Positions 25,220 to 52,754 are shown, counted from the stretch's first letter. The stretch is 64,000 bases of DNA from Gammaproteobacteria bacterium (GCA_050306135.1 JBNLGQ010000029.1:128585-192584), one strand, 5' to 3'. Program-made: numbers and translations. The notes: generated from the sequence alone by a model not told the origin.

Positions 25220-26880
25220 GGATTTTCCGGTTTGTTGCTGTTTCGACGAGCCTCGGCTTCATCAATCTGGCGTTGTTGAGCTGGCGTAAGATTCTCGATA
25301 TTTTTGGGTTTTACCGCCTGCTGGCTTTTGCGTGCTTTAACACGTTCCAGCGCAGCCTGTACCGCATCAGCAGTAGGCGAAGAGGTGGCTTCAGTATTTG
25401 CGGTTTCTGACTTAGCCTGTTGTTCGGTCTGTTTCTTCTTATCAAGCGCTTCACGCCTTTCACGTCGGCGCTCTTCATCCTGCATCTTTTGCTTGAGGAT
25501 GCGAGCTTCGCGAAATTCATGGCGTTTACGTGCACGATCAGACTGGTAGGTTTTCTTGCGTTGCTCCCAGATTTCACTCTTGGAGAATCGATAATATTGC
25601 ACCAGAGGGATATGGCTGGGACATACCGCTGAACAACATCCACATTCAATACAGTCGAATAAATGATATTGCTCAGATAATTCAAACTGTCTTGAACGGC
25701 TGTGCCAGTAAAGCTGCTGCGGAAGTAAATTCACCGGACACACTTCAGCACATTGACCACAGCGTACACATTCAGTCGCCTCGGGCTGGTCGAGTTTATC
25801 GAGCACAAGAATGGTGTTGGTGGCTTTTACTACCGGAATCTGGTCGCTATGCAAGGGCAGCCCCATCATTGGTCCACCCATAATCAGTAAGGGCTTATCC
25901 ACTTTATAGCCACCAGCGAGTTCTATCAGATGACTGATTGGAGTACCTATTGCGACATGCCAGTTACCAGGATTTTTGATGCCAGGCCCGGTCACTGTGA
26001 CAATACGCGAAGTGAGTCGCAGGTTCTCATCAATGGCATCTGCAATGGCAGCACAGGTACCCACATTTTGTGTTAGAAAGCCAATCTTGAAGGAGAGTTC
26101 ACCACTTAATACCTCGCGTCCGGTGAGTACCTTAATCAGCTGCCTTTCTCCCCCTGAAGGATAGAGTGTGGGAATAGATATAACCTGTGTATCAGCCAGC
26201 TCAAGCTCTTTCAATGCTTTACGCATGGCCTTAATAGCAGCGGGCTTGTTGTCTTCAATGCCAATCAAAGTTTGCTGGGGCTTGAGCAGGTTTTGTAAAA
26301 TCTGGATACCACGCATCACTTTGGGGGCATCGTGTTGCATCAGGATATCATCACAGGTGATATAGGGTTCGCATTCGGCGCCATTGATCACCAGAGTTTC
26401 TATCCGATGCTGTATCGCGGTTTCCAGTTTGGCGGCGGTAGGAAAGACCGCCCCCCCCAGACCCACAATGCCGCATTGTCGAATACGCTCCAGTATGTCT
26501 TGCGTACTGAGGTCAGAATTAACTGATTTACTACTGTTGATGTGGCTGTCGGTGCCATAGGGTTGAATAACAATACACAGGTCGGTTTGACCAGAAGGGT
26601 GTGCTATAGGTCGATCTTCAATTGCGGTGATGACACCTGAGGCTGGCGAATGGACCGGAGCACTGACAAACTCTATGGTTTCAGCCAATAACTGTCCTTT
26701 TTTGACGGACTGGCCAACCTTAACCAGAGGGCTGTTCGGTTCCCCAATGTGTTGACTGACGCGCACAATGATTTCATTCGGCAGGCTGGCAATTTGGATT
26801 TCACCACCCAGTGATTCCTTTTTGTGGTCCTCAAGATGTAGACCGCCATGAAACTTAAATGACCCTGGATTACCCGACAT
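25216..26880 (-). CDS. rnfC: Rnf subunit C
   Basis: Start at ATG 26880 ([13 protein letters not shown]); [24 protein letters not shown] and CIECGCC motifs; charged C-terminal tail. Confidence 0.94.
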
Positions 26881-38864: not shown

Positions 38865-39356
38865 ATGCCCTTATCTGCTGTGCCGTTTGAACAAATAAAG
38901 TCTGAAGTTAATGCGGATATGCTAAAAAACGGCTCTATCTTTGGCGCGTTATCAGGTGAGTCGATAAATTATCTGTTAAATCAGGGGGAGATATACCGGG
39001 TCGAGACCGGAGACAGGATTTTTGAATATGGAGATAAAGGCGAGAATTTCTATATTGTCTGCAAAGGCTCCATCGACTTTCATAAACAGTATAGAGGTGA
39101 ATGTGTACACACACGGACGGCAGGATTTGGTGAGGAGTTAGGTTTTGTCGCAATGATTGCGCTACATGATCACACAGGGTTCGCCGAAGCCAGTGAAGAT
39201 AGTGTGGTGTTAAAAATCTCTTCCTTATTGTTCAGAGCTTTGCATAAGGAATACCCCTTTGACTTTGGTATCATGAGCTTGAATCTGGCCCGAGATATGG
39301 CCAGAACTATTCGTAAACTGAATGATACACTGGTGGAAAATTCTATTACTTATTAG
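38865..39356 (+). CDS. Stand-alone cyclic nucleotide-binding domain protein
   Basis: IFEYGDKGENFYIV..G and GEELGFVAM cNMP-fold motifs; no HTH. Confidence 0.75.
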   Translation: MPLSAVPFEQIKSEVNADMLKNGSIFGALSGESINYLLNQGEIYRVETGDRIFEYGDKGENFYIVCKGSIDFHKQYRGECVHTRTAGFGEELGFVAMIALHDHTGFAEASEDSVVLKISSLLFRALHKEYPFDFGIMSLNLARDMARTIRKLNDTLVENSITY

Positions 39357-39421: not shown

Positions 39422-39449
39422 TGTAAGTTTTCCTTTTCTGTAACGACTA
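39422..39449 (+). promoter_or_regulatory. Candidate ECF promoter TGTAAG-N16-CGACTA upstream of the sigma gene
   Basis: Both hexamers recur exactly at 40447-40475. Confidence 0.7.
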
Positions 39450-39588
39450 ATTTAGAAATCAATATTTCGTATATAGGTTTATAGGAATAGTAATGCTGTT
39501 ATCTGGGTGATGAAATAAAGACTCTGGCTAAAAATCCCAGACATCACTATAGTTTCATGAAGATAAAACATGGATCAGAGCGTATTTA

Positions 39589-40218
39589 ATGAGTGATGAC
39601 CGACTAACTCCTGAAAGAAAGAAAATTGATGAAGGGGGAGTAAAACTTACCGACGAGGCTTTCATAGCAGAGTTACGTAAAAAAATGCTCAAATTTGCAA
39701 TGCTTCAGTTATCTGATCCACATCTGGCTGAAGATGCTGTTCAGGAAGCTCTGATTGCTGCGTTAAAGAATGCAGATTCTTTTCATCGCCGATCTGCTCT
39801 AAAGACATGGGTGTTTGCTATATTGAAAAATAAGATTGCTGATGTTTTAAGACAGAAAACACGCCGATCAGAAGTGAGTCAGCTGTCTACAGATGTTGAA
39901 GGTGATGACAGTCTGGATAAGCTTTTTAATGCCAGAGGTTTCTGGCAGGCAGATGAGAAGCCTGTAACCTGGTCTGAACCGATGGAGTCTGTACAAAACG
40001 GTCACTTCTGGCTGGTATTCGAAGCCTGTCTTGAGCATTTGCCAGAAAGCCAGGCTCGGCTGTTTATGATGAGGGAATTTATTCAGTTGGACACGGCTGA
40101 GATATGCGAAACCCTGAAAATATCTACCAGTAACCTGCATGTCATGTTGTATCGCTCCAGATTACGCTTAAGAGAATGCCTGGAGAATAACTGGTTCAAA
40201 GATGGAGAAAAGTCATGA
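39589..40218 (+). CDS. ECF sigma-70 factor (TIGR02943-like)
   Basis: AEDAVQEA, LKTWVFAILKNKI and NLHVMLYRSRLRLRECLE motifs. Confidence 0.92.
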   Translation: MSDDRLTPERKKIDEGGVKLTDEAFIAELRKKMLKFAMLQLSDPHLAEDAVQEALIAALKNADSFHRRSALKTWVFAILKNKIADVLRQKTRRSEVSQLSTDVEGDDSLDKLFNARGFWQADEKPVTWSEPMESVQNGHFWLVFEACLEHLPESQARLFMMREFIQLDTAEICETLKISTSNLHVMLYRSRLRLRECLENNWFKDGEKS

Positions 40219-40427
40219 TGAATTGTAAAAAAGCCACCCGGTTATTGTCTGAAGCCCAGGAGCATGATTTATCACTTACCGACCGTGCAGCGCTGAAAAT
40301 TCACGTGATGATGTGCTCTGGCTGCACTAACTTTTCAAAACAGATAAATTTATTGCGCAGTTTTTCTCAAAGCTATACACAGGGTGAAGAAGCAACCTTT
40401 CCTTCTGAAAAACAGGAAAAGGATTAA
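40215..40427 (+). CDS. Zinc-finger (zf-HC2/ZAS) anti-sigma factor
   Basis: N-terminal Cys plus HVMMCSGC (HxxxCxxC); ATGA overlap with the sigma stop. Confidence 0.88.
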   Translation: MMNCKKATRLLSEAQEHDLSLTDRAALKIHVMMCSGCTNFSKQINLLRSFSQSYTQGEEATFPSEKQEKD

Positions 40428-40446
40428 AAAATAATTTTACGTCAGG

Positions 40447-40475
40447 TGTAAGAATTTCAGTAGTCGCTACGACTA
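40447..40475 (+). promoter_or_regulatory. Candidate ECF promoter TGTAAG-N17-CGACTA upstream of arsS
   Basis: Same hexamers as 39422-39449; ends 54 nt before ATG 40530. Confidence 0.7.
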
Positions 40476-40529
40476 TGGATTTAAGCTGCATCCATAAGGG
40501 TGCCTGTCTTTTTTATCTGGAATTTGAAC

Positions 40530-41483
40530 ATGCTTGATACCTTACCCTATCTGGAAACAACAGAGTTTCCGCTGATTACCAGACGCAGTCTGGAAACACT
40601 GCAGGTTAACCTTGGATACCGCTGTAATCAGACCTGCCTACATTGTCACGTGAATGCCGGGCCTCATAGAACAGAAATGATGGATCAACACACATTACAG
40701 CAGATTTTGCCTGTGTTGCTTAAACATAATATAGCAACGCTTGATCTAACTGGAGGGGCTCCTGAGATGCATGATGGATTTCGTGAACTGGTTAGCTCGG
40801 TCACAAATGCAGGTGTTCATGTGATTGATCGCTGTAACCTGACGATCCTGTTCGAACCCGGACAGGAGGGGTTAGCTGAATTCCTTGCTGACGAAGGCGT
40901 TGAAATTGTTGCTTCTTTGCCCTGTTACACATTGGAAAACGTAGATCAGCAGCGTGGCAAAGGTGTTTTTGATAAGAGTATCGCGGGTCTACAGAAGCTC
41001 AACGCTCTCGGTTATGGCAAACCGGGAAGCGGTTTAAAGCTCAATCTGGTGTACAACCCTCAGGGTGCTCAGCTACCGCCTGATCAACAGCAGCTGGAAT
41101 GCGACTATAAGCGCGAACTAAAGGACCATTTTGCAATTGAATTTAATGAACTGTTTGTACTTGCCAATATGCCTGTTAAACGATTTGGTTCCACCTTACT
41201 CTCTAAAAATGGCCTTGACGATTACATAGCATTATTAAAAGCGAATTTCTCCGAACAAAACCTGGAGCAGGTTATGTGCCGCTCTATGCTAAGCGTAGAT
41301 TGGCAGGGGTATCTGTATGACTGTGATTTTAATCAACAACTGGGTATGAATCTTGATGGTTCAAAAAAGCCTGAATTAAAAGATTTACTGAATACGAAGC
41401 TGGAAGGGAAAACCATTCGTGTTGCGGATCACTGCTTTGGTTGTACTGCGGGTCAGGGTAGTAGCTGTGGCGGTGCGCTCTAA
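40530..41483 (+). CDS. arsS: ArsS-family radical SAM protein (DUF3641 C-terminus)
   Basis: CNQTCLHC motif, LDLTGGAPE, SLPCY, YDCDFNQ and the C-terminal HCFGCTAGQGSSCGGAL; ATG 40530. Confidence 0.88.
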   Translation: MLDTLPYLETTEFPLITRRSLETLQVNLGYRCNQTCLHCHVNAGPHRTEMMDQHTLQQILPVLLKHNIATLDLTGGAPEMHDGFRELVSSVTNAGVHVIDRCNLTILFEPGQEGLAEFLADEGVEIVASLPCYTLENVDQQRGKGVFDKSIAGLQKLNALGYGKPGSGLKLNLVYNPQGAQLPPDQQQLECDYKRELKDHFAIEFNELFVLANMPVKRFGSTLLSKNGLDDYIALLKANFSEQNLEQVMCRSMLSVDWQGYLYDCDFNQQLGMNLDGSKKPELKDLLNTKLEGKTIRVADHCFGCTAGQGSSCGGAL

Positions 41484-42315
41484 AAACTGGCAGCAAAAGC
41501 TGCCTGTCAAGGTTATTGTGTTATTAGCGGCGCTGACTATACAGTCAGTAGCTGCGGATAATTTTGATCATTCGATATGGGATAAACTGTTAAAGCAACA
41601 TGTGGAAAAAAAGGGCCTTTCCACGGTCGTGGATTATCGAGGCATGTTGTCTGATCATGCCCAGCTGAAACAGTATCTAAAGTCTATATCAACACTACTT
41701 CAACAGGAATTCGAGGAAATGGATTCCTCCTCCCAGCTGGCTTTTTTGATCAATGCTTATAATGCTTGGACGATAGAACTGGTTCTAAGCAACTACCCTG
41801 AACTAAATTCCATTAAAGATCTAGGCAATTTTATAGTTTCCCCCTGGAGTAGAGACTTTATTCCTCTGTTCGGAGAAAAATACTCACTGAATGATATCGA
41901 ACACAGGTTTATTCGTGGATCTGGACGATATCAAGATCCACGCATACATTTTGCGATTAATTGTGCCAGTATCAGTTGTCCGGCATTACGAGCGGAAGCT
42001 TATTGGGGGGATTTTCTAGATACTCAGTTTGAACAGCAGACGCGACTTTTCCTGTCTAATCAGAATCACAATCGCATTCAAAGTGATGTGTTACAGCTGT
42101 CATCTATTTTTAAATGGTATCGCTCTGACTTTGAGAAGGAGTGGATGGGCTGCAACTCATTAAATGATTTTTTGCTGCGATATGCTGATGAGCTTAAGTT
42201 AACAGCAGCGCATATTAAGCGCTTAAAAGATAATAAACAGATTATTGAATTTCTTGACTATGACTGGGGGCTCAATTCAAAAGCTGCTAAATCATCTCAA
42301 ACGGCGAGAAAATAG
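41473..42315 (+). CDS. DUF547 domain secreted protein
   Basis: LAFLINAYNAWT, DPRIHFAINCASISCP and FLDYDWGLN motifs; GTG 41473 gives a signal peptide. Confidence 0.88.
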   Translation: MRSKNWQQKLPVKVIVLLAALTIQSVAADNFDHSIWDKLLKQHVEKKGLSTVVDYRGMLSDHAQLKQYLKSISTLLQQEFEEMDSSSQLAFLINAYNAWTIELVLSNYPELNSIKDLGNFIVSPWSRDFIPLFGEKYSLNDIEHRFIRGSGRYQDPRIHFAINCASISCPALRAEAYWGDFLDTQFEQQTRLFLSNQNHNRIQSDVLQLSSIFKWYRSDFEKEWMGCNSLNDFLLRYADELKLTAAHIKRLKDNKQIIEFLDYDWGLNSKAAKSSQTARK

Positions 42316-42329
42316 AGATAATAATTACT

Positions 42330-43379
42330 ATGAAACCTTTTTATTATATGCAGGTGATAGTAATCATGTTCTTTATGATTCAATCGTCTCTGGTTGAGGC
42401 TAGCGACGAAATAAAGGAGCCTGTTACTGTTTCTATCTATATTGATAATGATTTATTCACGGGTAGTAACAGAGATGAAAATTACACCGGTGGTTTCGCG
42501 TTAACCTATTCTGGGGCAAAGGCTGCTAATCATCCTTTTTCTATTGATAAGGCTTTAAGATGGGTAAATGATTTAACAGGAGTTTCATCTGTTGCTCGTA
42601 ATGGCGATCGAATCTGGCACTCCTGTGAAGCGGGCCTGGCCGCATTTACACCCATCGATCTAGATAGTCGGCAGCCAATTACCAATGACCGACCCTATGC
42701 TGGTCTAGTTTATTTATCCAATGCGCAACAAACAGTTAGCGCAGAAACTCGCAGCGCCTTGATTAGTACGCTGACCCTGGGTTTTCTGGGTCTTCATTTA
42801 ACAGCCGAAACTCAAAACTCTATCCATGAAATGATTGGCTCAAGTAAGGCTGAAGGCTGGGATAATCAAATATCAGAAGGCGGTGAGGCTACCTTTAAAT
42901 ATTCATTAACCTGGCAGAAATATCCCGATTTAAAAAATAATAATCTACAGGCGACTACATCCTTAGGGGTTAGTATCGGTTACCTGACCGAAGCCGTCGC
43001 CGGTGCTAGTTTTCGCTTCGGAAGAATACATACTCCATGGTGGAGTTTTAATGTGCATAATAGTAACTACGGTGAAAAATCGAACGTCACTCTGCCGACA
43101 TCAAATTTTAAAGATGAGTTTTATGGGGTAGTCGGTGCGAATATCAAACTACGTATTTTTAACGCGTTGTTACAAGGTCAATTTCGGGATAGCAAGGTGA
43201 CCTACTCATCCAGTGATCTGGAGCCTGTGGTACTTGAAGCCTGGATAGGTGTGGGAAGTGAGTTTAAATCAGGCCTGCGACTCAGTTATCTTTTGCGCTA
43301 CCAAACCAGCGAGTTTAAAACCGGTCTGTCTGATCGAGGGTTTAGCTATGGTGAGATTGTAGCCAGCTATAAGTTTTAA
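42330..43379 (+). CDS. LpxR/DUF2219-family outer-membrane beta-barrel protein
   Basis: Signal peptide; DNDLF...D.NYTGG, DRPYAG, GWDNQI motifs; terminal Phe. Confidence 0.8.
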   Translation: MKPFYYMQVIVIMFFMIQSSLVEASDEIKEPVTVSIYIDNDLFTGSNRDENYTGGFALTYSGAKAANHPFSIDKALRWVNDLTGVSSVARNGDRIWHSCEAGLAAFTPIDLDSRQPITNDRPYAGLVYLSNAQQTVSAETRSALISTLTLGFLGLHLTAETQNSIHEMIGSSKAEGWDNQISEGGEATFKYSLTWQKYPDLKNNNLQATTSLGVSIGYLTEAVAGASFRFGRIHTPWWSFNVHNSNYGEKSNVTLPTSNFKDEFYGVVGANIKLRIFNALLQGQFRDSKVTYSSSDLEPVVLEAWIGVGSEFKSGLRLSYLLRYQTSEFKTGLSDRGFSYGEIVASYKF

Positions 43380-43463: not shown

Positions 43464-44852
43464 ATGATTACTGAACTCGTTATCATTACCGTTACAATCG
43501 CACTCTTTTCAATAATCCTGGCACCTCGTGTTAAATCTGAAAAGTCCTTTTTTCATGGATATACATCAACTGGCGTTTCCCCCGGTCTGCTCACGCTGGT
43601 ATTTTCTCAGGTAACGACCTGGATATTTGCCCGTTCATTAATGAATGCCGCGATTCTGGGTTTCTATTATGGGGTTTGGGGCACCCTGGCTTATGCAGCT
43701 TATTATCTGTCCTTTATTACCGGGGCATCGATTATAGACAGCCTCCGCTTCCGTCACGGTTATAAAAATATCCAGAGCTTTCTGTTTGATCGTTTCGGCA
43801 GTATCGGCACTGGCTGTTATAACTTTGTGATCGGGTTAAGGCTGGTCAGCGAGGTGTTTGCCAATCTGCTGGTGATAGGTATTCTTTTTGGTGCGGCTGG
43901 TAGCAATCTATATACACTGAGTATCATCGGTTTTGCAGCTATTACACTGATCTATTCTATGACGGGAGGGCTACATGCCTCGCTGCGTACCGACGTCATG
44001 CAAATGATCATTTTTATCATCGTGTTACTGGCGTTACTGGTGATTGTCATGGCTGGTGATAGCTTTTCGTGGGATATACTGGGATTTAAGGTATTTAAAA
44101 TCAGTGACCCTGGCCCTGTTTTATTATTGGTGGCATTGTTACAGGTCTGGAGTTATCCGATGCATGACCCGGTAATGATGGATAGAGGTCTGCTGGTCGA
44201 TCGTAATACGACCCGACGCAGCTTTTATCATGCCGCATGGATTAGCATTAGTTGTATTCTGGGTTTTGGCTTATTGGGGATTTTTGCGGGAGCAAATGCA
44301 ATGGATGGTGAGTCGATGAATGCCGCTTTAAGTCGATTAACAGGAAGTGTAACTATGCTTTTATTCAGCACGACATTGGTTATATCAGCGATGTCTACAC
44401 TTGATAGTACACTTTCCAGTTCAGCAAAATTAATAGTTATAGATATGCAACTGCTGGGTTACAAGGTGAGTAATGGGCGCCTTGTGATGGCATTATTTAT
44501 GCTGCTGGGTTTATTTCTGGTATTTGTCGGCAATAAAGACCTGTTTAGTGCTGTTGCAGTAAGCGGTACTGCTTCTATGTATCTGGCTCCGGTTATCTTT
44601 TTCTCACTATGGGGTGGACGAAATGATATTCCTGTATGGAGTTATGCAGCCAGCTTTACACTGGCGGTGAGTGCTGCGGTGTTATATTTTCTTGAGTCAT
44701 CTGGCTATACTATGCTGCTGGGTGATGCGCATAAATATACCAAGTTACTATGGATTTCTTTGGCTGTGCTTATCGCTGGATGTGGTTTTTTCTGGGTGGG
44801 CGGTAAAACTTCTGCGCAGAGTCAGCATCTTACACAAAGTTCTGCAGTTTAA
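43464..44852 (+). CDS. Sodium:solute symporter family protein
   Basis: Many TMs; SQVTTWIFARSLMNAAILG, GGLHASLRTD and SAMSTLDS motifs. Confidence 0.85.
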   Translation: MITELVIITVTIALFSIILAPRVKSEKSFFHGYTSTGVSPGLLTLVFSQVTTWIFARSLMNAAILGFYYGVWGTLAYAAYYLSFITGASIIDSLRFRHGYKNIQSFLFDRFGSIGTGCYNFVIGLRLVSEVFANLLVIGILFGAAGSNLYTLSIIGFAAITLIYSMTGGLHASLRTDVMQMIIFIIVLLALLVIVMAGDSFSWDILGFKVFKISDPGPVLLLVALLQVWSYPMHDPVMMDRGLLVDRNTTRRSFYHAAWISISCILGFGLLGIFAGANAMDGESMNAALSRLTGSVTMLLFSTTLVISAMSTLDSTLSSSAKLIVIDMQLLGYKVSNGRLVMALFMLLGLFLVFVGNKDLFSAVAVSGTASMYLAPVIFFSLWGGRNDIPVWSYAASFTLAVSAAVLYFLESSGYTMLLGDAHKYTKLLWISLAVLIAGCGFFWVGGKTSAQSQHLTQSSAV

Positions 44853-44888: not shown

Positions 44889-46553
44889 ATGCCCTCGACG
44901 TTCCTTCTGGTTTCAGTGTTCATATTAGTCTTTATCGGCAGTGTGCAGCTGATATGGCCTCCTGTTCTATGGGCACTGGTTATCTGTCTCCCGATGATTA
45001 TTATTGGGTTTTATGACATGTTTCAGAGTGATCATGCCATCAGACGTAACTTCCCCCTGTTTGGACGTGGCCGATGGCTGATGGAGGGACTGCGTCCATA
45101 TATCAGACAATATTTACTTGAGTCAGATACCAATGGGACTCCGATCAACAGGATGTTTCGCAATATTATTTATCAGCGTGCAAAGGGTGCTCGGGAAACA
45201 GTGCCTTTTGGTACCCGAGTTGATACCTATCGTACGGGTTATGAATGGATGGGGCATTCCCTGTCAGCCATCGATGTGAATAGTTTTGATGCCGATATGC
45301 GTGTCACTATTGGTGGTCCAGACTGTCGCCAGCCATACTCCTCCAGTATATTGAATATTTCAGCCATGAGCTTTGGTGCTCTCAGTCAAAATGCCATACT
45401 GGCATTGAATCAGGGGGCTCAACTGGGCGGGTTTTCGCATAATACCGGCGAAGGTGGTATCAGCCCTCATCACCTCAAACACGGCGGAGATCTGGTGTGG
45501 CAAATAGGCACGGGCTATTTTGGTTGTCGTGATAAACAGGGGAATTTTTCAGCACAGGAATTCAGCCAGAAGGCCAATCTGGATGTGGTGCGCATGATAG
45601 AAATCAAACTATCGCAGGGTGCAAAGCCCGGGCATGGTGGCATTCTACCTGCGGATAAAAATACCGCAGAGATTGCTGCCATACGTGGCGTAGAGGTCGG
45701 AACTCAGGTGAATTCTCCTCATGTACACAGTGCTTTTGATTCCCCCCTTGGTCTGCTGAGATTTATCGATCAGTTACGCACTCTATCGAATGGGAAGCCG
45801 GTCGGTTTCAAGCTTTGTATCGGGCGTCAGAGTGAGTTTGTCGCTATCTGTAAAGCCATGCTGGAAACAAATATTTACCCTGACTTTATAACTGTTGATG
45901 GTGGTGAAGGTGGCACGGGTGCCGCCCCATTAGAGTATACCAACTCTGTCGGTATGCCGTTACGTGAAGCCGTTGCGTTTGTTGATGATTGCCTCACTGG
46001 TTTTGGTATACGTCAGCATATTCGCATTATAGCTTCAGGTAAGATTCTTTCCGGTTTTCATCTGGTTAAAACGCTGGCGCTGGGTGCTGATATCTGTAAC
46101 AGCGCCAGAGGCATGATGCTGGCTTTGGGCTGCGTGCATTCATTAACCTGTAACAGCAATGAATGCCCAACGGGGGTGGCTACACAAAACCCTAAATTAT
46201 TTCGTGGACTGGTAGTGAGTGATAAAAGTCAACGAGTGGCACAGTTTCATAAAAAGACCGTGCACGCTACGGCTGATATTATTTCTTCGGCAGGCCTACG
46301 TCACAGCAGCGAGCTGAATAGAACCCACATATTTCGACGTACCAGCCAGAACTGTATTCAGCGATATGATCAAATTTTTCCATATATTGGCTCGGGAAGT
46401 TTGTTGAGTGAAGATATACCTGAAGCCTACAGCTTGTATCTGGAAGAGGCTGATTCCAAAAGTTTCCAGCCCAAACAGAGTTTAACTTATATGAAAAATG
46501 AGAACAGCAAGATAGATGTTAACAGCGCTCCAGTGACGCCTGATTTATCTTAA
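44889..46553 (+). CDS. FMN-binding glutamate synthase family protein (stand-alone, N-terminal TMs)
   Basis: SAMSFGAL, HNTGEGG, EIKLSQGAKPGHGG, DGGEGGTGAAP and C-x5-C-x4-CPTGVATQ motifs. Confidence 0.9.
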   Translation: MPSTFLLVSVFILVFIGSVQLIWPPVLWALVICLPMIIIGFYDMFQSDHAIRRNFPLFGRGRWLMEGLRPYIRQYLLESDTNGTPINRMFRNIIYQRAKGARETVPFGTRVDTYRTGYEWMGHSLSAIDVNSFDADMRVTIGGPDCRQPYSSSILNISAMSFGALSQNAILALNQGAQLGGFSHNTGEGGISPHHLKHGGDLVWQIGTGYFGCRDKQGNFSAQEFSQKANLDVVRMIEIKLSQGAKPGHGGILPADKNTAEIAAIRGVEVGTQVNSPHVHSAFDSPLGLLRFIDQLRTLSNGKPVGFKLCIGRQSEFVAICKAMLETNIYPDFITVDGGEGGTGAAPLEYTNSVGMPLREAVAFVDDCLTGFGIRQHIRIIASGKILSGFHLVKTLALGADICNSARGMMLALGCVHSLTCNSNECPTGVATQNPKLFRGLVVSDKSQRVAQFHKKTVHATADIISSAGLRHSSELNRTHIFRRTSQNCIQRYDQIFPYIGSGSLLSEDIPEAYSLYLEEADSKSFQPKQSLTYMKNENSKIDVNSAPVTPDLS

Positions 46554-46559
46554 CAGCCC

Positions 46560-47282
46560 CTAACTCAAGTTGAAGGATAAAGGGATTTCAAACTGCCACT
46601 GCAGACGATTTATTTTTTCAGGAAAGGGGAGTTTCCCTGAAACGGCCTGTATCGCCTTGATGACGGCTTTATCCAGAATCTTATGCCCTGTGGAATCGAT
46701 AACGCGAATCTGTTTGACGGTGCCATCACTCAATACAAGAAAACTTACAATTGCCCTGCCTTCTATATTACGGCGTTGTGCGCGCCGAGGGTAATCCTTG
46801 CTGGCATCGATTAACTTGCTCAGGGTTAGTCGATACTCATCTTCCAGCCTGGTAATTAGTCCGGGATCATGCATCATCTTCTCGGGTTCTGCTTCCAATG
46901 CAGCTACCGGCTGTGGAGGCGGTGCTGCCTGCACAATCTCTGGTTGCGGCTCGACCTCTGGTTTCGGTGGTTCTATTTTTTTCTCTACTACAGGCTTTCT
47001 CATCGGCCTGGGTTTAGGCTTTACGATGGGTTTGGTTTTCTTTTTTACTACGGGTTTCGGCTTGACCGGTTTGGGAGGAGGAGTTACCGGTTTTGGTGGC
47101 TCAGGAATAATGGTCTTAACTGGTTCGGGAACTGTTTTGAACATCGCCAGTTTTAATGGGGTAGTTGTTTGTTTATTGCTGGCAGAAGTGAATTTTCCTG
47201 AAAAATAGGGGATAGCGACCGCTGCATGTATGAGTGCAGAAAAAAAGATGGCTATCAACTCGAAATGGAAATTTCTGGGCAT
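46560..47282 (-). CDS. tonB: TonB energy transducer
   Basis: N-terminal TM, Pro/Lys-rich linker, YPRRAQRRNIEG C-terminal domain. Confidence 0.9.
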   Translation of the reverse strand: MPRNFHFELIAIFFSALIHAAVAIPYFSGKFTSASNKQTTTPLKLAMFKTVPEPVKTIIPEPPKPVTPPPKPVKPKPVVKKKTKPIVKPKPRPMRKPVVEKKIEPPKPEVEPQPEIVQAAPPPQPVAALEAEPEKMMHDPGLITRLEDEYRLTLSKLIDASKDYPRRAQRRNIEGRAIVSFLVLSDGTVKQIRVIDSTGHKILDKAVIKAIQAVSGKLPFPEKINRLQWQFEIPLSFNLS

Positions 47283-47284
47283 TG

Positions 47285-47659
47285 TTATTGCTGTTTGGTA
47301 ATAATCGATAGCTTTTCGAGTTGATTGCCTTTGAGTAAATCAATCACCTGGATAAAGTATTCAAAAGCTACCTTTTTATCTACGCGCAATACGATAGGCG
47401 TATCGTTCGATAAATCCTTAAGCCGGTCGCCTAATTCCTGCTGGGTGATTTTCTCTTCGTCGTAATAAAACTGATTTTGATCATCAATCGCAATTTCTCG
47501 TGTCTGTTCAGCTTTTAGCGGTTGACTGCTACTGGCTTCGGGTATGTTGATATCGATCTTGCCCTGAGCGATGAAGGTTGCTGTCATCAATACGATAGCC
47601 AGCAATACCAGCATGATGTCGATAAATGGAATAACATTGATCTGATCAAAGCGTTTCAT
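47285..47659 (-). CDS. exbD: ExbD
   Basis: INVIPFIDIMLVLL motif; ATG 47659 overlaps the exbB stop. Confidence 0.92.
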   Translation of the reverse strand: MKRFDQINVIPFIDIMLVLLAIVLMTATFIAQGKIDINIPEASSSQPLKAEQTREIAIDDQNQFYYDEEKITQQELGDRLKDLSNDTPIVLRVDKKVAFEYFIQVIDLLKGNQLEKLSIITKQQ

Positions 47660-48084
47660 TGATCCTGTGCCTGTTTCCATTGTGAAGTCAGTACATCAAC
47701 CTTACGCAACAGCGTGTTGTAGAACAGTATGGAGGGAATGGCGACTACAAGCCCCGCTGCAGTCGCTTTAAGTGCCAGAGCCAGTCCAAGCATGATGGCA
47801 GAGGGGTCTATGTTTCCTCCGCCCTTGCCTATATCCCAGAAAGTAATCAATATGCCAAATACCGTTCCCAATAAGCCGATATAGGGTGCGTTGGAACCAA
47901 TGGTTGAAATAGCGGTGAGTCTATGGGTCAGGGAAACCTGAAGTTGCTCAGGATGGGTGTAAGCATCCACCTTGAAGCGGGCGTAAAAGATAAAGCGTTC
48001 AATGACGAACCAGATCATCAGAAAACTCATCAGACCGAGAATGCCGAAAACCATAAAATCCAGATATTGCTTTAAAAATTCCAT
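47656..48084 (-). CDS. exbB: ExbB (short form)
   Basis: TIGSNAPYIGLLGTVFGI and ALKATAAGLVVAIP motifs; 142 aa. Confidence 0.92.
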   Translation of the reverse strand: MEFLKQYLDFMVFGILGLMSFLMIWFVIERFIFYARFKVDAYTHPEQLQVSLTHRLTAISTIGSNAPYIGLLGTVFGILITFWDIGKGGGNIDPSAIMLGLALALKATAAGLVVAIPSILFYNTLLRKVDVLTSQWKQAQDQ

Positions 48085-48086
48085 AA

Positions 48087-48731
48087 TTAAAATGCCATAG
48101 CAATGCGATAACTACCGATAGCAACCAGTACACTGCTACCGAACCAGACCAATCCCTGTTTCAGCCAGGGGCTGCGACTACGTAGTTCCTGCCCCAACTT
48201 GCCGAGTAAAGGCAGGATAATAAAAAGCGGGGTAATCGCTGCACCAAGGCCAAATACAAATCCGTAGGACATTCCCAGGGTGAAGCTTCCGGCTGCAGCA
48301 CAGGCAGCTAACAGGGCGGCAAGTGGCGCACAGGGAATAAAGCTAAGAGAAAAACCCATCATGAAAGGATGCATATTGTGTCGCTTACTGATCGCGCAAC
48401 CACGGTGCTGCTTACCCATGTTGTAAATTAACCAGATACCTGCCACTACACTGCTGACTCCGATTAATACATTGCCAATACCGCTACGCAGGTAATGCAG
48501 CAGAAATTCACCAGTAATACCTGCGAATGCACCTAGTGTTGCATAGGCTGTCACTTTTCCAGCAGCAAATAATCCGGCATCAATCATGCTGCCTTTCATA
48601 CCCAGATTGCGGCTCATTACCCAGCTGCCCATAAAGGGCAGGCAGGATGCTGTGCAGGCGGTAAAGCCTACGGTGATGCCGAGAATCCACACCGAAAATA
48701 GTCCGACCTGTTGCAGTACGATATTGTCCAT
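48087..48731 (-). CDS. CcdA/DsbD_2 (TauE/UreH-like) membrane protein
   Basis: Six hydrophobic segments with the Cys motifs ACTASCLP and FIPCAPL. Confidence 0.7.
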   Translation of the reverse strand: MDNIVLQQVGLFSVWILGITVGFTACTASCLPFMGSWVMSRNLGMKGSMIDAGLFAAGKVTAYATLGAFAGITGEFLLHYLRSGIGNVLIGVSSVVAGIWLIYNMGKQHRGCAISKRHNMHPFMMGFSLSFIPCAPLAALLAACAAAGSFTLGMSYGFVFGLGAAITPLFIILPLLGKLGQELRSRSPWLKQGLVWFGSSVLVAIGSYRIAMAF

Positions 48732-49786
48732 CAGACTGGCTCCACGGTAACGGGGCGAGGTTTAGCTTTTTTTGTAGGCTTTATACCTTCAGGCTTTTCC
48801 TGCTTGATACGTTTCTTGTAGTACTCTCTGTTAGAGCTAAATAATGCTATCGGGCCAAACTTGACTTGAATGACACCGTCATCAGGACAGAATTCAGCAC
48901 AGCGTCCGCATAAAGTGCAGTCATCGTGAAAGGCTTTGCTGCCTGATTGTTTCCAGATTTCCTGAATATCCATCGGGCAGGCCTTTGTACAGACGCCACA
49001 TTTTTCGCATTTCTCATGTTCTTTCTTTACCAGTCGTGTGGGCGATAGTTTCTGGAACAGAGCATTGAATGCGAGTAAGGGACAGATTCTACAAAATGGC
49101 TGACGCATGGTCATCGATAACACAACAATCGTGCCGAATAACAATGCACGTATAGATGAAAAAATGATATCAGCGATACCTGCGGTGTTAATGGTTAACT
49201 GTTCAAAGTTACCACTAGCTAATGTGGTAAGAACACGAGATGGACAGACCTGACAAAAGGCATCACCGGCAGCGTGCGGTGCTACGCCAAGTCCAGCGAC
49301 CAGGGGCAGGATAAAAACCAGTATGGCCAGCATTAACCATTTTATTGGACGTACATATCGCAGCTGATTTTGCGCAAGGCTGTGGTTTTTCTGTAGCCCA
49401 AAGAAGTGTGACATCTTGTACATCATTTCCTGAAAGGTACCCAGCGGGCAGATCCAGCCGCAGAACATCTTATTCAGAAAAACAAAAAATACATAAAATG
49501 ACAGAAAGGTGAACAGTAGAGGAATGACGACCTTGTAACTGAATTGCTGTATCTGTACTAATGCTTCTCCAACACGATGGTGCAATTGATGCTGGGTAGG
49601 TATCAGTACGCAATAACCTCCATTTAACTGATCGTAGGCACAGGAAAGAGCAGGCAGAGATCCTGAGATTTTTTCTGCAGAATAGTGACCTACAAGAAGG
49701 CCGCCATATACCAGAAAAAGAAAGGATAGAATTTGTACGACAAATCGTACACGGCCAAGAGTAGGTGCGCTTATGGATGAGCTCAT
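48731..49786 (-). CDS. Membrane 4Fe-4S protein (NapH/CcoG/NosR-like)
   Basis: FCGWICPLG, FCRICP, CEKCGVCTKACP and CTLCGRCAEFCP motifs. Confidence 0.85.
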   Translation of the reverse strand: MSSSISAPTLGRVRFVVQILSFLFLVYGGLLVGHYSAEKISGSLPALSCAYDQLNGGYCVLIPTQHQLHHRVGEALVQIQQFSYKVVIPLLFTFLSFYVFFVFLNKMFCGWICPLGTFQEMMYKMSHFFGLQKNHSLAQNQLRYVRPIKWLMLAILVFILPLVAGLGVAPHAAGDAFCQVCPSRVLTTLASGNFEQLTINTAGIADIIFSSIRALLFGTIVVLSMTMRQPFCRICPLLAFNALFQKLSPTRLVKKEHEKCEKCGVCTKACPMDIQEIWKQSGSKAFHDDCTLCGRCAEFCPDDGVIQVKFGPIALFSSNREYYKKRIKQEKPEGIKPTKKAKPRPVTVEPV

Positions 49787-50598
49787 GCTGACCTCCTTTT
49801 GAACAAAAAGATGCCGGTTATCAGGCTACCGCTAAAAGCCAGACCAATGGCCGGTAATACGGATTTATTGGTGAAAGCATCTTCGCCATATTTGTAATTA
49901 AAGGCTGACGTTTTATTATCATGCTCAACACTGAGGGCAAATTGGGCGGATTTTCTACCATGGCTTGCATGGCCCATGTCATGGCCTTTATGCTTTTCTG
50001 CGAAGGCTGCAAAATCATCTGGAAAACGGACAGAGACTATGCCATTAGCATCGCTGGTCATAGTGATGGTTGTGTCGTTACTGGTCTCTAGAATAACGGT
50101 AGCATCGGCCAGAGGTTTTCCCTGTGATAGCACGATAAAATCCCAGTTTTCATTGGCTCTAAATCGTTGGTGTTCGCGCGGTAGATTTACGGGCTTGATT
50201 TCCAGTGGCAGTTTGCTTTGCTTTAGCATCTGTCTTGGCGCCGGACCGGGGCTAGAAAAATAATGAACTGTACTTGCAAAGTGTAATCCTTCGCTATCAG
50301 CAGCAGTTAACCAGTGGTAATTACCCTGGTTTTTACCGCCGATTTTCATGCTAAAGCTGCCATCACCGGTTGCATTTAATTCATTCGCAATAGACTCGCC
50401 TTCTGATGCAGGAAAATCCTGCATCAAAACATTGCTCATATTGTGAGGGCGAAAAGCAGACTGAGCACGACGATCAGCACCCTTTATTCTCTCCGGGATA
50501 AGTATCGGAGCTGAGGTCCAGTTGACACTCGCCTGTAGCGGGATAGCCAGTGATGCAAGTACAGCCCAGACAGGAGCCAAATAAATCAGTCTTTTCAT
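49783..50598 (-). CDS. Periplasmic DUF4198-like protein with His-rich loop and C-terminal membrane anchor
   Basis: Signal peptide; LEIKP..F.V...GKPLADA.V..T.SDANG.V pattern; HKGHDMGHASH; terminal TM followed by KRR. Confidence 0.6.
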   Translation of the reverse strand: MKRLIYLAPVWAVLASLAIPLQASVNWTSAPILIPERIKGADRRAQSAFRPHNMSNVLMQDFPASEGESIANELNATGDGSFSMKIGGKNQGNYHWLTAADSEGLHFASTVHYFSSPGPAPRQMLKQSKLPLEIKPVNLPREHQRFRANENWDFIVLSQGKPLADATVILETSNDTTITMTSDANGIVSVRFPDDFAAFAEKHKGHDMGHASHGRKSAQFALSVEHDNKTSAFNYKYGEDAFTNKSVLPAIGLAFSGSLITGIFLFKRRSA

Positions 50599-52754
50599 GA
50601 TTTAGCTCCAAAGCTATAGGTGTAATTGAACAGGATGGATCGTGGTGCACCGGCCTGGTAGGATTTGTCACCTGAGGTGTCTTTGCTCACTTCTAATGCA
50701 TAGCGTTCGTCGGTCAGATTGCTCACGGTTAAATCGAACTTGTGCTGTTTCATGGCATAGCGCAGGTTAAAATCAGCAATCATTTTATTGTCCGTCCATT
50801 TTTCACTGTTGGCATTATCCATATAGTATTCACCATCTTTGCGTAGCTTAATCTGTGAAGAAAACCCTTCTGTGAATTGATATTCAACGAACATATTGGT
50901 TTGTTGACGGGGTATTAACGGTAGATAGTTTCCGCTACGATCCACATTGGAAACATTACGTCCAACTCTAACTTCTTCCTGGAAGTCATCATATTTATAG
51001 CTGGTGAAGTTTAACCCGGCGCCAAAAGTTAATTGTGCAGTAGCTGCATACTGACCTGAAAATTCCAGTCCCTGTTTACTGGTCTGACCGGCATTAACAT
51101 ATTGGCTTTCTCCATCAGGCTGACGAATTTGAATAACTTCATCCTTTCCAGTAATGTCATAAATGGAGGTATCGAAAGACCATCTTCCACTGCGGCCCTT
51201 TAAACCGATCTCGATATTTGTATTGCTGGATTTGTTTAGATCAGGGTTGCTATTGAGTTCGCTGTCTGCAGGTATTTGATCGGCTGTGGCAAGTGAAATA
51301 AAGGTATTAATCTCTTTAGTTAGTTCATAACTTACACCTACACTGGCTGAGCCAAGGGTTAGGTCGTGGGTGTTATGGGTCTCGCCAGCGCCGGTATCAT
51401 AATTACCTGTGCTGTAGTTGTAGGCGATGATCTCATTTTCATCAATAGTGAGTTTGACGTCATCCACGCGAGCTGTTAAATCCATACTGACTCGGTCAGT
51501 CAGGTTCAGGTGTTCTGAAGCGAAAAGACCCAGCAGTGTTCCTTTGGTGCTGCTTATTTGTGCCAGCTCGCCTTTATCATCTGAAAGTGTAGAAACGATA
51601 CGACCTGAAGGGATGGTTTGAACATCGGCATAGGTATACTTTTCAGCATCCTTGGTAGTATTAACCCGATAAGCAATACCAAAAACCGTATTGGCATCTC
51701 GTCCGCCTATCTGGTGTTCATTCTGAACGGCAATCTCTGCGCCCAGCATGTTGGGTGGATTACCGGAGTTGTCATTGATGAATCCGGTAACAGGGTGGTA
51801 ATGGTGATACTGGCTGTAATACAGCTTGGGTTCCAGCATATAATCACCCATCTCGATTTCTGCCTTGGTGTTAAAGAAAACATTCTCGGAATAGCGACCG
51901 GTATGTTTGAAGATGCTATCTACGTCATTCTGTTCACCCGTACGCTTGTATTCTTCCCACATGGCTTCGTCCATTCCGCCTGATAATTCCATATCAATTT
52001 TTGCAAAACCGAGCTCGGTTTCCAGCACATTATCTTCACCAAACTCAAGACCATGTTTAATGCTCAGGTGATCACTGGACTGTTCATTACGTTTGCGCCA
52101 GCTGTTCTTTAATTCACGATGACTAAAGGTGACTGACATAGCCTGGTTTTCGTTGATGTCTCCCCCCGTTCTTAAGTGCAGGTCACTACCATCATCATCG
52201 TTGATACCAATCTTTATGCGGCCTTTATCCTGATCGAAAACAGATTTTGTGATGATATGAATGGTGCCGCCTGCAGAGCCCGAAGCATACATATTGCCGG
52301 GACCACGGGTGACTTCTAAACGTTCAATGTCCTGACCATCGATAGTGTCCAGGCGGGTAAAGCTATCGGGCTCTGTAAGAGGGATGCCATCGCGTAGTAC
52401 CATAATTTCTCGTATGCCATATCTTGCTTTCAGTCCTGCACCACGAATAATCAGCTTGGCACTACTTAAACCATTTTTTGAGTAGGTAACAACACCGGGA
52501 ATATCCTGTAATGCATCACTGATGGAGTTCATCTTCAGCTGGTCGAGTTTTTCTTCACCCATACTGGAAATAGCCGAAGGCACCGACTTGCTTTCACGCT
52601 CGGATCTTGTTGCGGTAATGGTTACTTCATCAAGTACATCTCCTCCAGCGGTTTCAGCATAACTGGGCAAAGGAATGAGTGAAGACAAAAAAAGAAAATA
52701 TGCAGAGGTGAGGTAATGCCCTGATTTCCGATTGATACAGAATGGATCTTTCAT
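50595..52754 (-). CDS. TonB-dependent receptor
   Basis: TonB box DEVTITATR, plug motifs IRGAG and IERLEVTRGP...GSAGGTI, C-terminal NLTDERY...GAPRS. Confidence 0.93.
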   Translation of the reverse strand: MKDPFCINRKSGHYLTSAYFLFLSSLIPLPSYAETAGGDVLDEVTITATRSERESKSVPSAISSMGEEKLDQLKMNSISDALQDIPGVVTYSKNGLSSAKLIIRGAGLKARYGIREIMVLRDGIPLTEPDSFTRLDTIDGQDIERLEVTRGPGNMYASGSAGGTIHIITKSVFDQDKGRIKIGINDDDGSDLHLRTGGDINENQAMSVTFSHRELKNSWRKRNEQSSDHLSIKHGLEFGEDNVLETELGFAKIDMELSGGMDEAMWEEYKRTGEQNDVDSIFKHTGRYSENVFFNTKAEIEMGDYMLEPKLYYSQYHHYHPVTGFINDNSGNPPNMLGAEIAVQNEHQIGGRDANTVFGIAYRVNTTKDAEKYTYADVQTIPSGRIVSTLSDDKGELAQISSTKGTLLGLFASEHLNLTDRVSMDLTARVDDVKLTIDENEIIAYNYSTGNYDTGAGETHNTHDLTLGSASVGVSYELTKEINTFISLATADQIPADSELNSNPDLNKSSNTNIEIGLKGRSGRWSFDTSIYDITGKDEVIQIRQPDGESQYVNAGQTSKQGLEFSGQYAATAQLTFGAGLNFTSYKYDDFQEEVRVGRNVSNVDRSGNYLPLIPRQQTNMFVEYQFTEGFSSQIKLRKDGEYYMDNANSEKWTDNKMIADFNLRYAMKQHKFDLTVSNLTDERYALEVSKDTSGDKSYQAGAPRSILFNYTYSFGAKS

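Follow-up and report, generated by a model that had tools for sequence, protein, structure and literature searches.

Twin ECF13-type promoters probably link a sigma factor/zinc-binding anti-sigma pair to an ArsS-type radical SAM operon

In a 64,000-nucleotide stretch of a Gammaproteobacteria bacterium genome (GCA_050306135.1 JBNLGQ010000029.1:128585-192584, hereafter the window), the genes of a sigma factor of the extracytoplasmic function (ECF) type, of a zinc-binding anti-sigma (ZAS) protein and of an ArsS-type radical S-adenosylmethionine (SAM) protein follow one another on the same strand. Does this sigma/anti-sigma pair control, besides its own transcription, that of the adjacent arsS operon? 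Our analysis suggests that it does: we give a probability of about 0.8 to an ECF13/ECF293-type sigma/ZAS switch with two cognate promoters, P_sigma and P_arsS, that drives the arsS operon. The elements concerned are the following.

39422..39449, plus strand: P_sigma, predicted autoregulatory ECF13-type promoter; -35 TGTAAG(TTTT), 16-nt spacer, -10 CGACTA(AT)
39589..40218, plus strand: ECF sigma factor, 209 amino acids (aa), with regions 2 and 4 only (Pfam, NCBIfam)
40215..40427, plus strand: cytoplasmic ZAS anti-sigma, 70 aa; Pfam zf-HC2, NCBIfam NF052368 'antisigmaE' 71 bits (cutoff 50)
40447..40475, plus strand: P_arsS, second predicted ECF13-type promoter; -35 TGTAAG(AATT), 17-nt spacer, -10 CGACTA(TG)
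40530..41483, plus strand: ArsS-type radical SAM protein, 317 aa; TIGR04167 465 bits (cutoff 300), Pfam Radical_SAM and DUF3641

Direct reading places TGTAAG at 39422-39427 and CGACTA at 39444-39449, 140 nt ahead of the sigma ATG (39589). The same hexamers recur at 40447-40452 and 40470-40475, within the 102 nt that separate the anti-sigma stop (40427) from the arsS ATG (40530), with a CGWC-to-ATG distance of 56 nt. A sequence-only reading of this DNA had reported TGTAAG-N16-CGACTA and TGTAAG-N17-CGACTA with 12/12 identity in adjacent intergenic regions, and both the direct reading and a search of the two strands of the window confirmed it: TGTAAG-N15-18-CGACTA matches exactly twice, both times on the plus strand, for a chance expectation of 0.02, and none of 100 dinucleotide shuffles contained two or more matches. 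We also trained a position weight matrix on related loci and applied it to the window and to shuffled sequences. P_arsS obtained the best score of the window (21.4) and P_sigma scored 19.0; the third-ranked site, at 26635 on the minus strand, reached 14.9, which is the chance level (1.2 sites scoring at least 14 per shuffle). A loose form of the motif is expected by chance about once in every 33 kb of each strand and is thus not significant within a single window; its matches at 44348 (plus) and 26635 (minus) are at chance level. The significance of the promoter pair stems from the exact 12/12 identity, the two consecutive intergenic positions and the conservation across genomes. Neither intergenic region, before the sigma gene or before arsS, yielded a sigma-70-like promoter, and no terminator was found between the anti-sigma gene and P_arsS or arsS.

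The published consensus of Neisseria sigmaE, -35 GTMAGBWTT and -10 CGTCTAAH separated by 12-13 nt (PMC2893595), fits both candidate sites. P_sigma reads GTAAGTTTT-N12-CGACTAAT and agrees with the -35 consensus at 9 of 9 positions and with the -10 consensus at 7 of 8, while P_arsS reads GTAAGAATT-N13-CGACTATG, with a spacing also within the Neisseria range. The third base of the -10 motif is A in the window, and A or T across the family. In Neisseria, the mapped msrAB start falls on a conserved A located 6 nt past the -10 motif (PMC2893595), and an A is present at the predicted +1 of both window promoters (A39457 for P_sigma, A40483 for P_arsS). The likeness to the Neisseria sigmaE/MseR system, noted at the outset for its similar GTAAG -35 and its control of msrAB, is thus borne out by the published consensus and by the published regulon, which comprises msrAB and the sigmaE operon itself (PMC2893595).

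The sigma factor contains the Pfam domains Sigma70_r2 (residues 26-93) and Sigma70_r4_2 (residues 144-194) and matches the NCBIfam models PRK12544 (307 bits, cutoff 287) and TIGR02943 (251 bits, cutoff 162). Its 2819 homologues, at 60-70% identity, are spread over gamma- and betaproteobacteria. The anti-sigma has zf-HC2 as its sole domain and no transmembrane segment, and its ATG overlaps the sigma stop codon as ATGA, so that the two genes would be translationally coupled. Cys4, His30, Cys34 and Cys37 of the anti-sigma are invariant in 37 family members and occupy positions identical to those reported for MseR, where mutagenesis showed that Cys4, Cys34 and Cys37 are required for anti-sigma activity and where His30 completes the ZAS motif (PMC2893595). 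The initial description of the locus as an ECF sigma factor followed by a short ZAS anti-sigma therefore holds, both proteins scoring above curated family cutoffs. Searches against solved structures returned only distant ECF sigma and radical SAM relatives, and no match for the anti-sigma. In an alignment of 15 diverse homologues, C147, C173 and C197 of the sigma factor are invariant; by analogy with some other ECF groups, these cysteines may constitute a second redox-sensitive layer.

Based on these features, the pair appears to belong to the ECF13 family of Neisseria sigmaE-MseR and Haemophilus RpoE2-HrsE, which was merged into ECF293 in a later reclassification (PMC7826278). Two other assignments were discarded. 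The singlet-oxygen-responsive ECF11 pair RpoE-ChrR was ruled out, its anti-sigma being about 200 aa long with a C-terminal cupin, compared with 70 aa and zf-HC2 only in the window. The family of Cupriavidus RpoQ, suggested by bufferin/gig neighbours, was rejected since RpoQ is an ECF16 member with a membrane anti-sigma and a different promoter (PMC13492112).

In order to follow the motif beyond the window, we scanned genomes with an alignment of sigma homologues. This returned 80 loci, of which 35 (L001-L035) carry a sigma/ZAS pair of the same family, with sigma factors 43-66% identical to that of the window; the closest is found in an Oleiphilus metagenome-assembled genome (MAG; 66%). The motif lies 40-170 nt upstream of the sigma reading frame in at least 12 of these 35 loci, including L001, L005-L007, L011-L014, L019, L032 and L033, and about 10 of them have a second copy immediately downstream of the anti-sigma gene. 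Pooling 106 instances gave the family consensus TGTAAGRAW-N12-13-CGWCTAA, in which TGTAA is followed by G (66%), R and A (66%), and CGWC by T, A and A (45, 60 and 65%); this information falls at positions that the search pattern had left free. Two closer relatives, L161 and L165, were found by exact protein look-up. Their sigma proteins are 85% and 78% identical to that of the window, and their genes are ordered sigma, ZAS, arsS, transporter, GltS-like. Both promoters are kept there at -35 and -10, base for base in the case of P_arsS, while the spacers and the DNA upstream of the -35 motifs have diverged. P_arsS is also conserved in L001.

Four other genomic loci, from the Oleiphilus MAG, a Hydrogenophilales MAG, Microbulbifer rhizosphaerae and Caldimonas manganoxidans, have arsS in the vicinity of the sigma gene; in all four of them (L001, L003, L006 and L008) a correctly oriented motif lies before arsS. 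A metagenome scan with an ArsS alignment yielded 80 further loci, 79 of them usable. Of these 79, 16 carry a sense-oriented motif no more than 250 nt from the arsS start; shuffled sequences gave 0.4 on average and 3 at most, and 80 control windows taken from within the arsS coding sequence gave none. The CGWC-to-ATG distance in the metagenomic loci clusters at 29-44 nt, and three antisense matches near arsS correspond to divergent promoter pairs. The motif-positive loci range from 40 to 73% GC and thus represent independent lineages. In most of them the sigma gene is absent from the contig; loci with the motif before arsS and no sigma gene upstream include L081, L083, L084, L087, L122, L126 and L150. 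The motif therefore tracks arsS itself and not adjacency to the sigma gene. Taken together, the four sigma-linked loci, the two close relatives and the 16 metagenomic loci back the direct sigma-arsS link that had been drawn from the window.

Other genes are preceded by the motif in related loci. They include operons of BufA, BufB (MNIO; 357 bits, cutoff 310), DUF2063 and DoxX, 720-aa DedA-flavin disulfide reductase fusions (MerA/RclA-like), TIGR03169 reductases (NCBIfam label 'Nterm_to_SelD'), thioredoxin-like proteins, and ArsM-like methyltransferases whose scores are below the NCBIfam cutoffs. As the bufferin/DoxX operon is an established RpoE2/sigmaE target (PMC7907618), its presence cross-validates the family assignment. 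The usual neighbours of arsS in related loci are the DedA-reductase and the TIGR04283 and TIGR04282 transferases. ArsM-like SAM methyltransferases with a Cys-rich tail have a motif copy of their own in L002 (258-290), L008 (11626-11659), L083 and L123, which suggests that arsS and arsM-like genes are co-regulated even as separate transcription units. Back-to-back divergent copies were observed within single intergenic regions (L001 5885-5981, L006 2876-2977, L081 and L087): one copy faces arsS and the other faces a DoxX-like gene in L001, and genes for a 184-aa protein and a thioredoxin-like protein in L006.

Several observations weigh against our interpretation. One of 30 shuffles reached a matrix score of 21.95, so that the matrix score alone is insufficient to set P_sigma and P_arsS apart from chance. 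The -10 motif is CGACTA in the window and CGTCTA in Neisseria, and P_arsS matches the extended Neisseria -10 at only 5 of 8 positions. About one third of the related sigma loci have no recognisable motif upstream of the sigma gene, and about three quarters of the metagenomic arsS loci lack it before arsS, which means that the sigma-arsS link is lineage-restricted. As for the family, we infer the equivalence of TIGR02943 and ECF13 from the anti-sigma model, from the promoter and from bufferin/DoxX targets in common. Finally, oxidants failed to detectably induce sigmaE in meningococci (PMC2893595), which makes the signal uncertain even in model systems, and induction of an oxygen-labile radical SAM enzyme by oxidative stress would be counter-intuitive.

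We infer that the sigma factor of the window uses this motif; the start sites, the extent of the operon, the inducing signal and the ArsS product are likewise to be read as predictions. In the mechanism that we propose, the 70-aa zinc-binding ZAS anti-sigma would hold the sigma factor in the cytoplasm of unstressed cells. An oxidant such as HOCl or H2O2, or another thiol-reactive agent, would attack Cys4, Cys34 and Cys37 and release it. By analogy with the characterised members of the family, the signal would be oxidative or thiol stress. RNA polymerase carrying the freed sigma factor would then initiate near 39457 at P_sigma, creating a positive feedback, and near 40483 at P_arsS to transcribe arsS and the DUF547, lpxR-like, transporter and gltS-like genes. 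Read-through from P_sigma probably adds to arsS expression, since no terminator separates the anti-sigma gene from P_arsS.

The same wiring could respond to another signal. A thiophilic metal or metalloid (arsenite, selenite, tellurite, Cu(I) or Au), rather than reactive oxygen or chlorine, could bind or oxidise the ZAS cysteines, in which case the arsS operon would be part of a metalloid/chalcogen handling response. Because of the family-level regulon and of the oxygen sensitivity of radical SAM enzymes, we regard a thiophilic metalloid or an electrophile as a serious alternative, if a less probable one. The motif-preceded genes of related loci, namely those of ArsM-like proteins, bufferin (a copper-binding peptide), MerA/RclA-like-DedA fusions and TIGR03169 reductases, point in this direction, as do the TIGR04282 and TIGR04283 transferases of ArsS-type clusters and the response of Caulobacter bufferin operons to copper (PMC11626156); anoxic or metalloid stress would moreover suit a radical SAM enzyme better than oxidants. 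On the other hand, HOCl and H2O2, in H. influenzae, are the only experimental inducers reported for the family, the 64-kb window holds no ArsM, DedA-reductase, transferase or bufferin gene, and the ArsM-like proteins of the related loci score below the NCBIfam cutoffs.

Far less probable is a weak or vestigial P_arsS, with arsS owing most of its expression to read-through from P_sigma or to an unrecognised housekeeping promoter. The uninterrupted path from the anti-sigma gene to arsS and the poorer fit of the P_arsS extended -10 to the Neisseria consensus would agree with it; against it stand the top matrix score of P_arsS (above that of P_sigma), the base-for-base retention of its -35 and -10 in L161 and L165, and the presence of the motif before arsS where no sigma gene lies upstream (e.g. 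L081, L083 and L084). That the two matches arose by chance, or belong to a repeated element unrelated to transcription, has a negligible probability in spite of the frequency of the loose motif and its further matches at 44348 and 26635, given the chance expectation of the exact pattern, the constant position and orientation relative to genes over dozens of loci of very different GC content, and the match to an experimentally derived promoter consensus.

ArsS appears to be an undescribed and widely conserved member of the ECF13 regulon. The characterised regulons of Neisseria sigmaE and Haemophilus RpoE2 do not include ArsS. In the literature that we searched, we found no link of ArsS, DUF3641, TIGR04167 or selenodomain enzymes to an ECF sigma factor, in keeping with the initial remark that no description of the association had been seen, and no account of the function or regulation of ArsS-type proteins in Proteobacteria. 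The sigma/anti-sigma switch is of a known type and its regulatory logic is conventional; the conserved wiring to an ArsS-type cluster is new. The ArsS-type radical SAM family is widespread in Proteobacteria and is named for a cyanobacterial arsenosugar step; control by a thiol-sensing sigma factor offers an experimental handle on the product of the ArsS cluster and on the conditions in which it is required. The ECF13 regulon, so far known for methionine sulfoxide reductases and DoxX/bufferin in pathogens, would extend towards metalloid- or redox-linked enzymes in environmental bacteria. A broader proposal concerns the orphan ArsS/'rSAM-selenodomain' cluster, defined as ArsS, the DedA-flavin disulfide reductase, the TIGR04282/TIGR04283 transferases and an ArsM-like methyltransferase; in the window, DUF547, transporter and GltS-like genes are found instead. 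In many Proteobacteria this cluster could be a stress-inducible, ZAS-switched pathway that makes or detoxifies organic arsenic, selenium or tellurium compounds, with the anti-sigma cysteines as direct metalloid/electrophile sensor. We consider this proposal speculative and rather doubtful; if true, it would mean a new, non-cyanobacterial role for ArsS and a new input for ECF13 systems.

The remaining genes of the predicted arsS operon are listed below.

41473..42315, plus strand: exported DUF547 protein (Pfam DUF547); likely GTG start at 41467 or 41473
42330..43379, plus strand: LpxR-like outer-membrane protein; Pfam LpxR 162 bits, beginning 15 nt past the DUF547 stop
43464..44852, plus strand: 462-aa polytopic membrane protein, distant relative of sodium:solute symporters; weak SSF/sss matches, below cutoffs
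44889..46553, plus strand: membrane-anchored flavin mononucleotide (FMN) oxidoreductase related to the glutamate synthase domain (GltS-like); Pfam Glu_synthase 274 bits

The genes from arsS to the GltS-like gene, which ends the run, are co-directional with short gaps, and no terminator-like site was found between them. Alignment with homologues 68-69% identical places the arsS start at ATG 40530 rather than at GTG 40500. The cluster-binding motif of ArsS is CNQTCLHC (C32-N-Q-T-C36-L-H-C39), and its C-terminal Cys-rich DUF3641 domain (186 bits) ends with CFGCTAGQGSSCGGAL, invariant in 4 homologues. The longest DUF547 reading frame starts at 41419 and overlaps arsS by 65 nt (41419-41483). A GTG start at 41467 or 41473 would yield a typical signal peptide, RSKNWQQKLPVKVIVLLAALTIQSVAA, and reduce the overlap to 11-17 nt, which is consistent with translational coupling. 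The LpxR-like gene probably shares an operon with the DUF547 gene. DUF547 adjoins arsS in L093, L102, L106, L119, L138 and L142 and directly follows the anti-sigma gene in L010. Neither the DUF547 gene nor the LpxR-like gene occurs in the closest relatives, L161 and L165; as judged from this comparison, the two are an insertion relative to them. L161 and L165 retain the order arsS, transporter, GltS-like, and the 462-aa transporter-like gene lies directly 3' of arsS in L161, L165, L134 and L138.

Across the whole 64-kb window, tblastn found no match to ArsM or to the TIGR04282/TIGR04283 transferases, and none of the other genes that follow the motif in relatives, DedA-reductase and bufferin genes included, lies in the window; ArsM and the transferases could be located elsewhere in the source genome. 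Because ArsM and the associated transferases are missing within the 64 kb, 'arsenosugar biosynthesis' is a doubtful name for the target of the switch in this stretch, the 'arsenosugar' label of the window ArsS deriving from profile similarity only.

An Rfam scan of the whole window gave no match. The leaders of the two predicted transcripts nevertheless contain candidate structures, one of them close to the predicted arsS start.

40488..40503, plus strand: 6-bp hairpin GCATCC-ATAA-GGGTGC, at about +5 of the predicted arsS mRNA; stem kept in L161 and L165

Among the three sequences compared (window, L161 and L165), the stem differs by one U-G to C-G change. The T-run that the window has 3' of the hairpin is not conserved in L161 or L165. 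A 5' stabilising stem is consequently more likely than a terminator, and an attenuator role was set aside for the same reason. The predicted arsS leader (40483-40535) begins with AAGC, which could pair with GCUU immediately past the AUG. The predicted 133-nt sigma leader (39457-39588) shares the blocks ACTCTGGYTAAAA, CTATAGTT and ATCAGAGCGTATTT with L161 and L165, and a 13-bp long-range helix is predicted between AATACTCTGG and CAGAGCGTATT just 5' of the start codon. Every pair of this helix, which could occlude the ribosome-binding region, is invariant, hence without covariation support.

Directly upstream of P_sigma (38865-39356) lies a gene for a stand-alone 163-aa cyclic-nucleotide-binding-domain protein devoid of DNA-binding domain, which is not kept at the same position in L161 or L165. 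On the other side, the minus-strand genes at 46600-52000 match in order and sizes the TonB/ExbD/ExbB/DsbD_2/ferredoxin block of L161 and L165, which makes the neighbourhood a syntenic, chromosomal one and not a mobile island. The GC content, about 43% in the window, is even across the region. In two metagenome contigs, L166 and L167, the transporter gene after arsS is shortened to 218 aa and the TonB/ExbBD/DsbD_2/Fer4/DUF4198 block up to the GltS-like gene is inverted with respect to L165. This points to an inversion, one breakpoint of which falls within the transporter gene.

Among known systems, sigmaE (NMB2144)/MseR (NMB2145) of Neisseria meningitidis and N. gonorrhoeae shares with the window the short cytoplasmic ZAS anti-sigma encoded directly downstream of the sigma gene and the autoregulated operon. 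Its promoters, GTAAG...CG(T/A)CTAA, have the same spacing and an A at +1 (PMC2893595). Its regulon differs, consisting of msrAB and of its own operon with DoxX/DUF692/DUF2063, with no radical SAM gene reported, whereas in the window the sigma gene heads its operon and arsS is the adjacent target. Haemophilus influenzae RpoE2/HrsE belongs to ECF group 13, HrsE being a cytoplasmic ZAS anti-sigma of 67 aa. The system responds to HOCl and H2O2, and promoters that depend on RpoE2 precede msrAB, dmt, mtsZ and the DoxX/DUF692/DUF2063 operon (PMC7907618). It resembles the window in the co-transcription of the ZAS gene with the sigma gene and in the separate sigma-dependent promoters before neighbouring targets (PMC7907618); its DoxX/DUF692/DUF2063 operon has counterparts in several window-related loci. 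In contrast to the window, RpoE2 is only weakly autoregulated and no ArsS-type gene is involved. SigmaR/RsrA of Streptomyces coelicolor likewise relies on a soluble ZAS anti-sigma whose zinc-ligand cysteines, when oxidised, free the sigma factor, but it is an ECF12 system of Actinobacteria with another promoter consensus and a thioredoxin/mycothiol regulon. Caulobacter SigF-NrsF and Cupriavidus RpoQ-RsqA (ECF16) are also metal/oxidative-stress ECF systems with a bufferin-type operon as neighbour or target; their anti-sigma factors are membrane-bound and not of the ZAS type, and their promoter is AATTCG / GGTTAC, compared with GTAAG/CGAC here. Cyanobacterial ArsS acts on dimethylarsenite. The cyanobacterial ArsS/ArsM arsenosugar pathway and the window have in common the ArsS equivalog profile, the radical SAM motif and the Cys-rich C-terminal domain, and differ in the partners of ArsS, which in the window are the DUF547, LpxR-like, transporter and GltS-like proteins, with no ArsM, TIGR04282 or TIGR04283 in the 64 kb.

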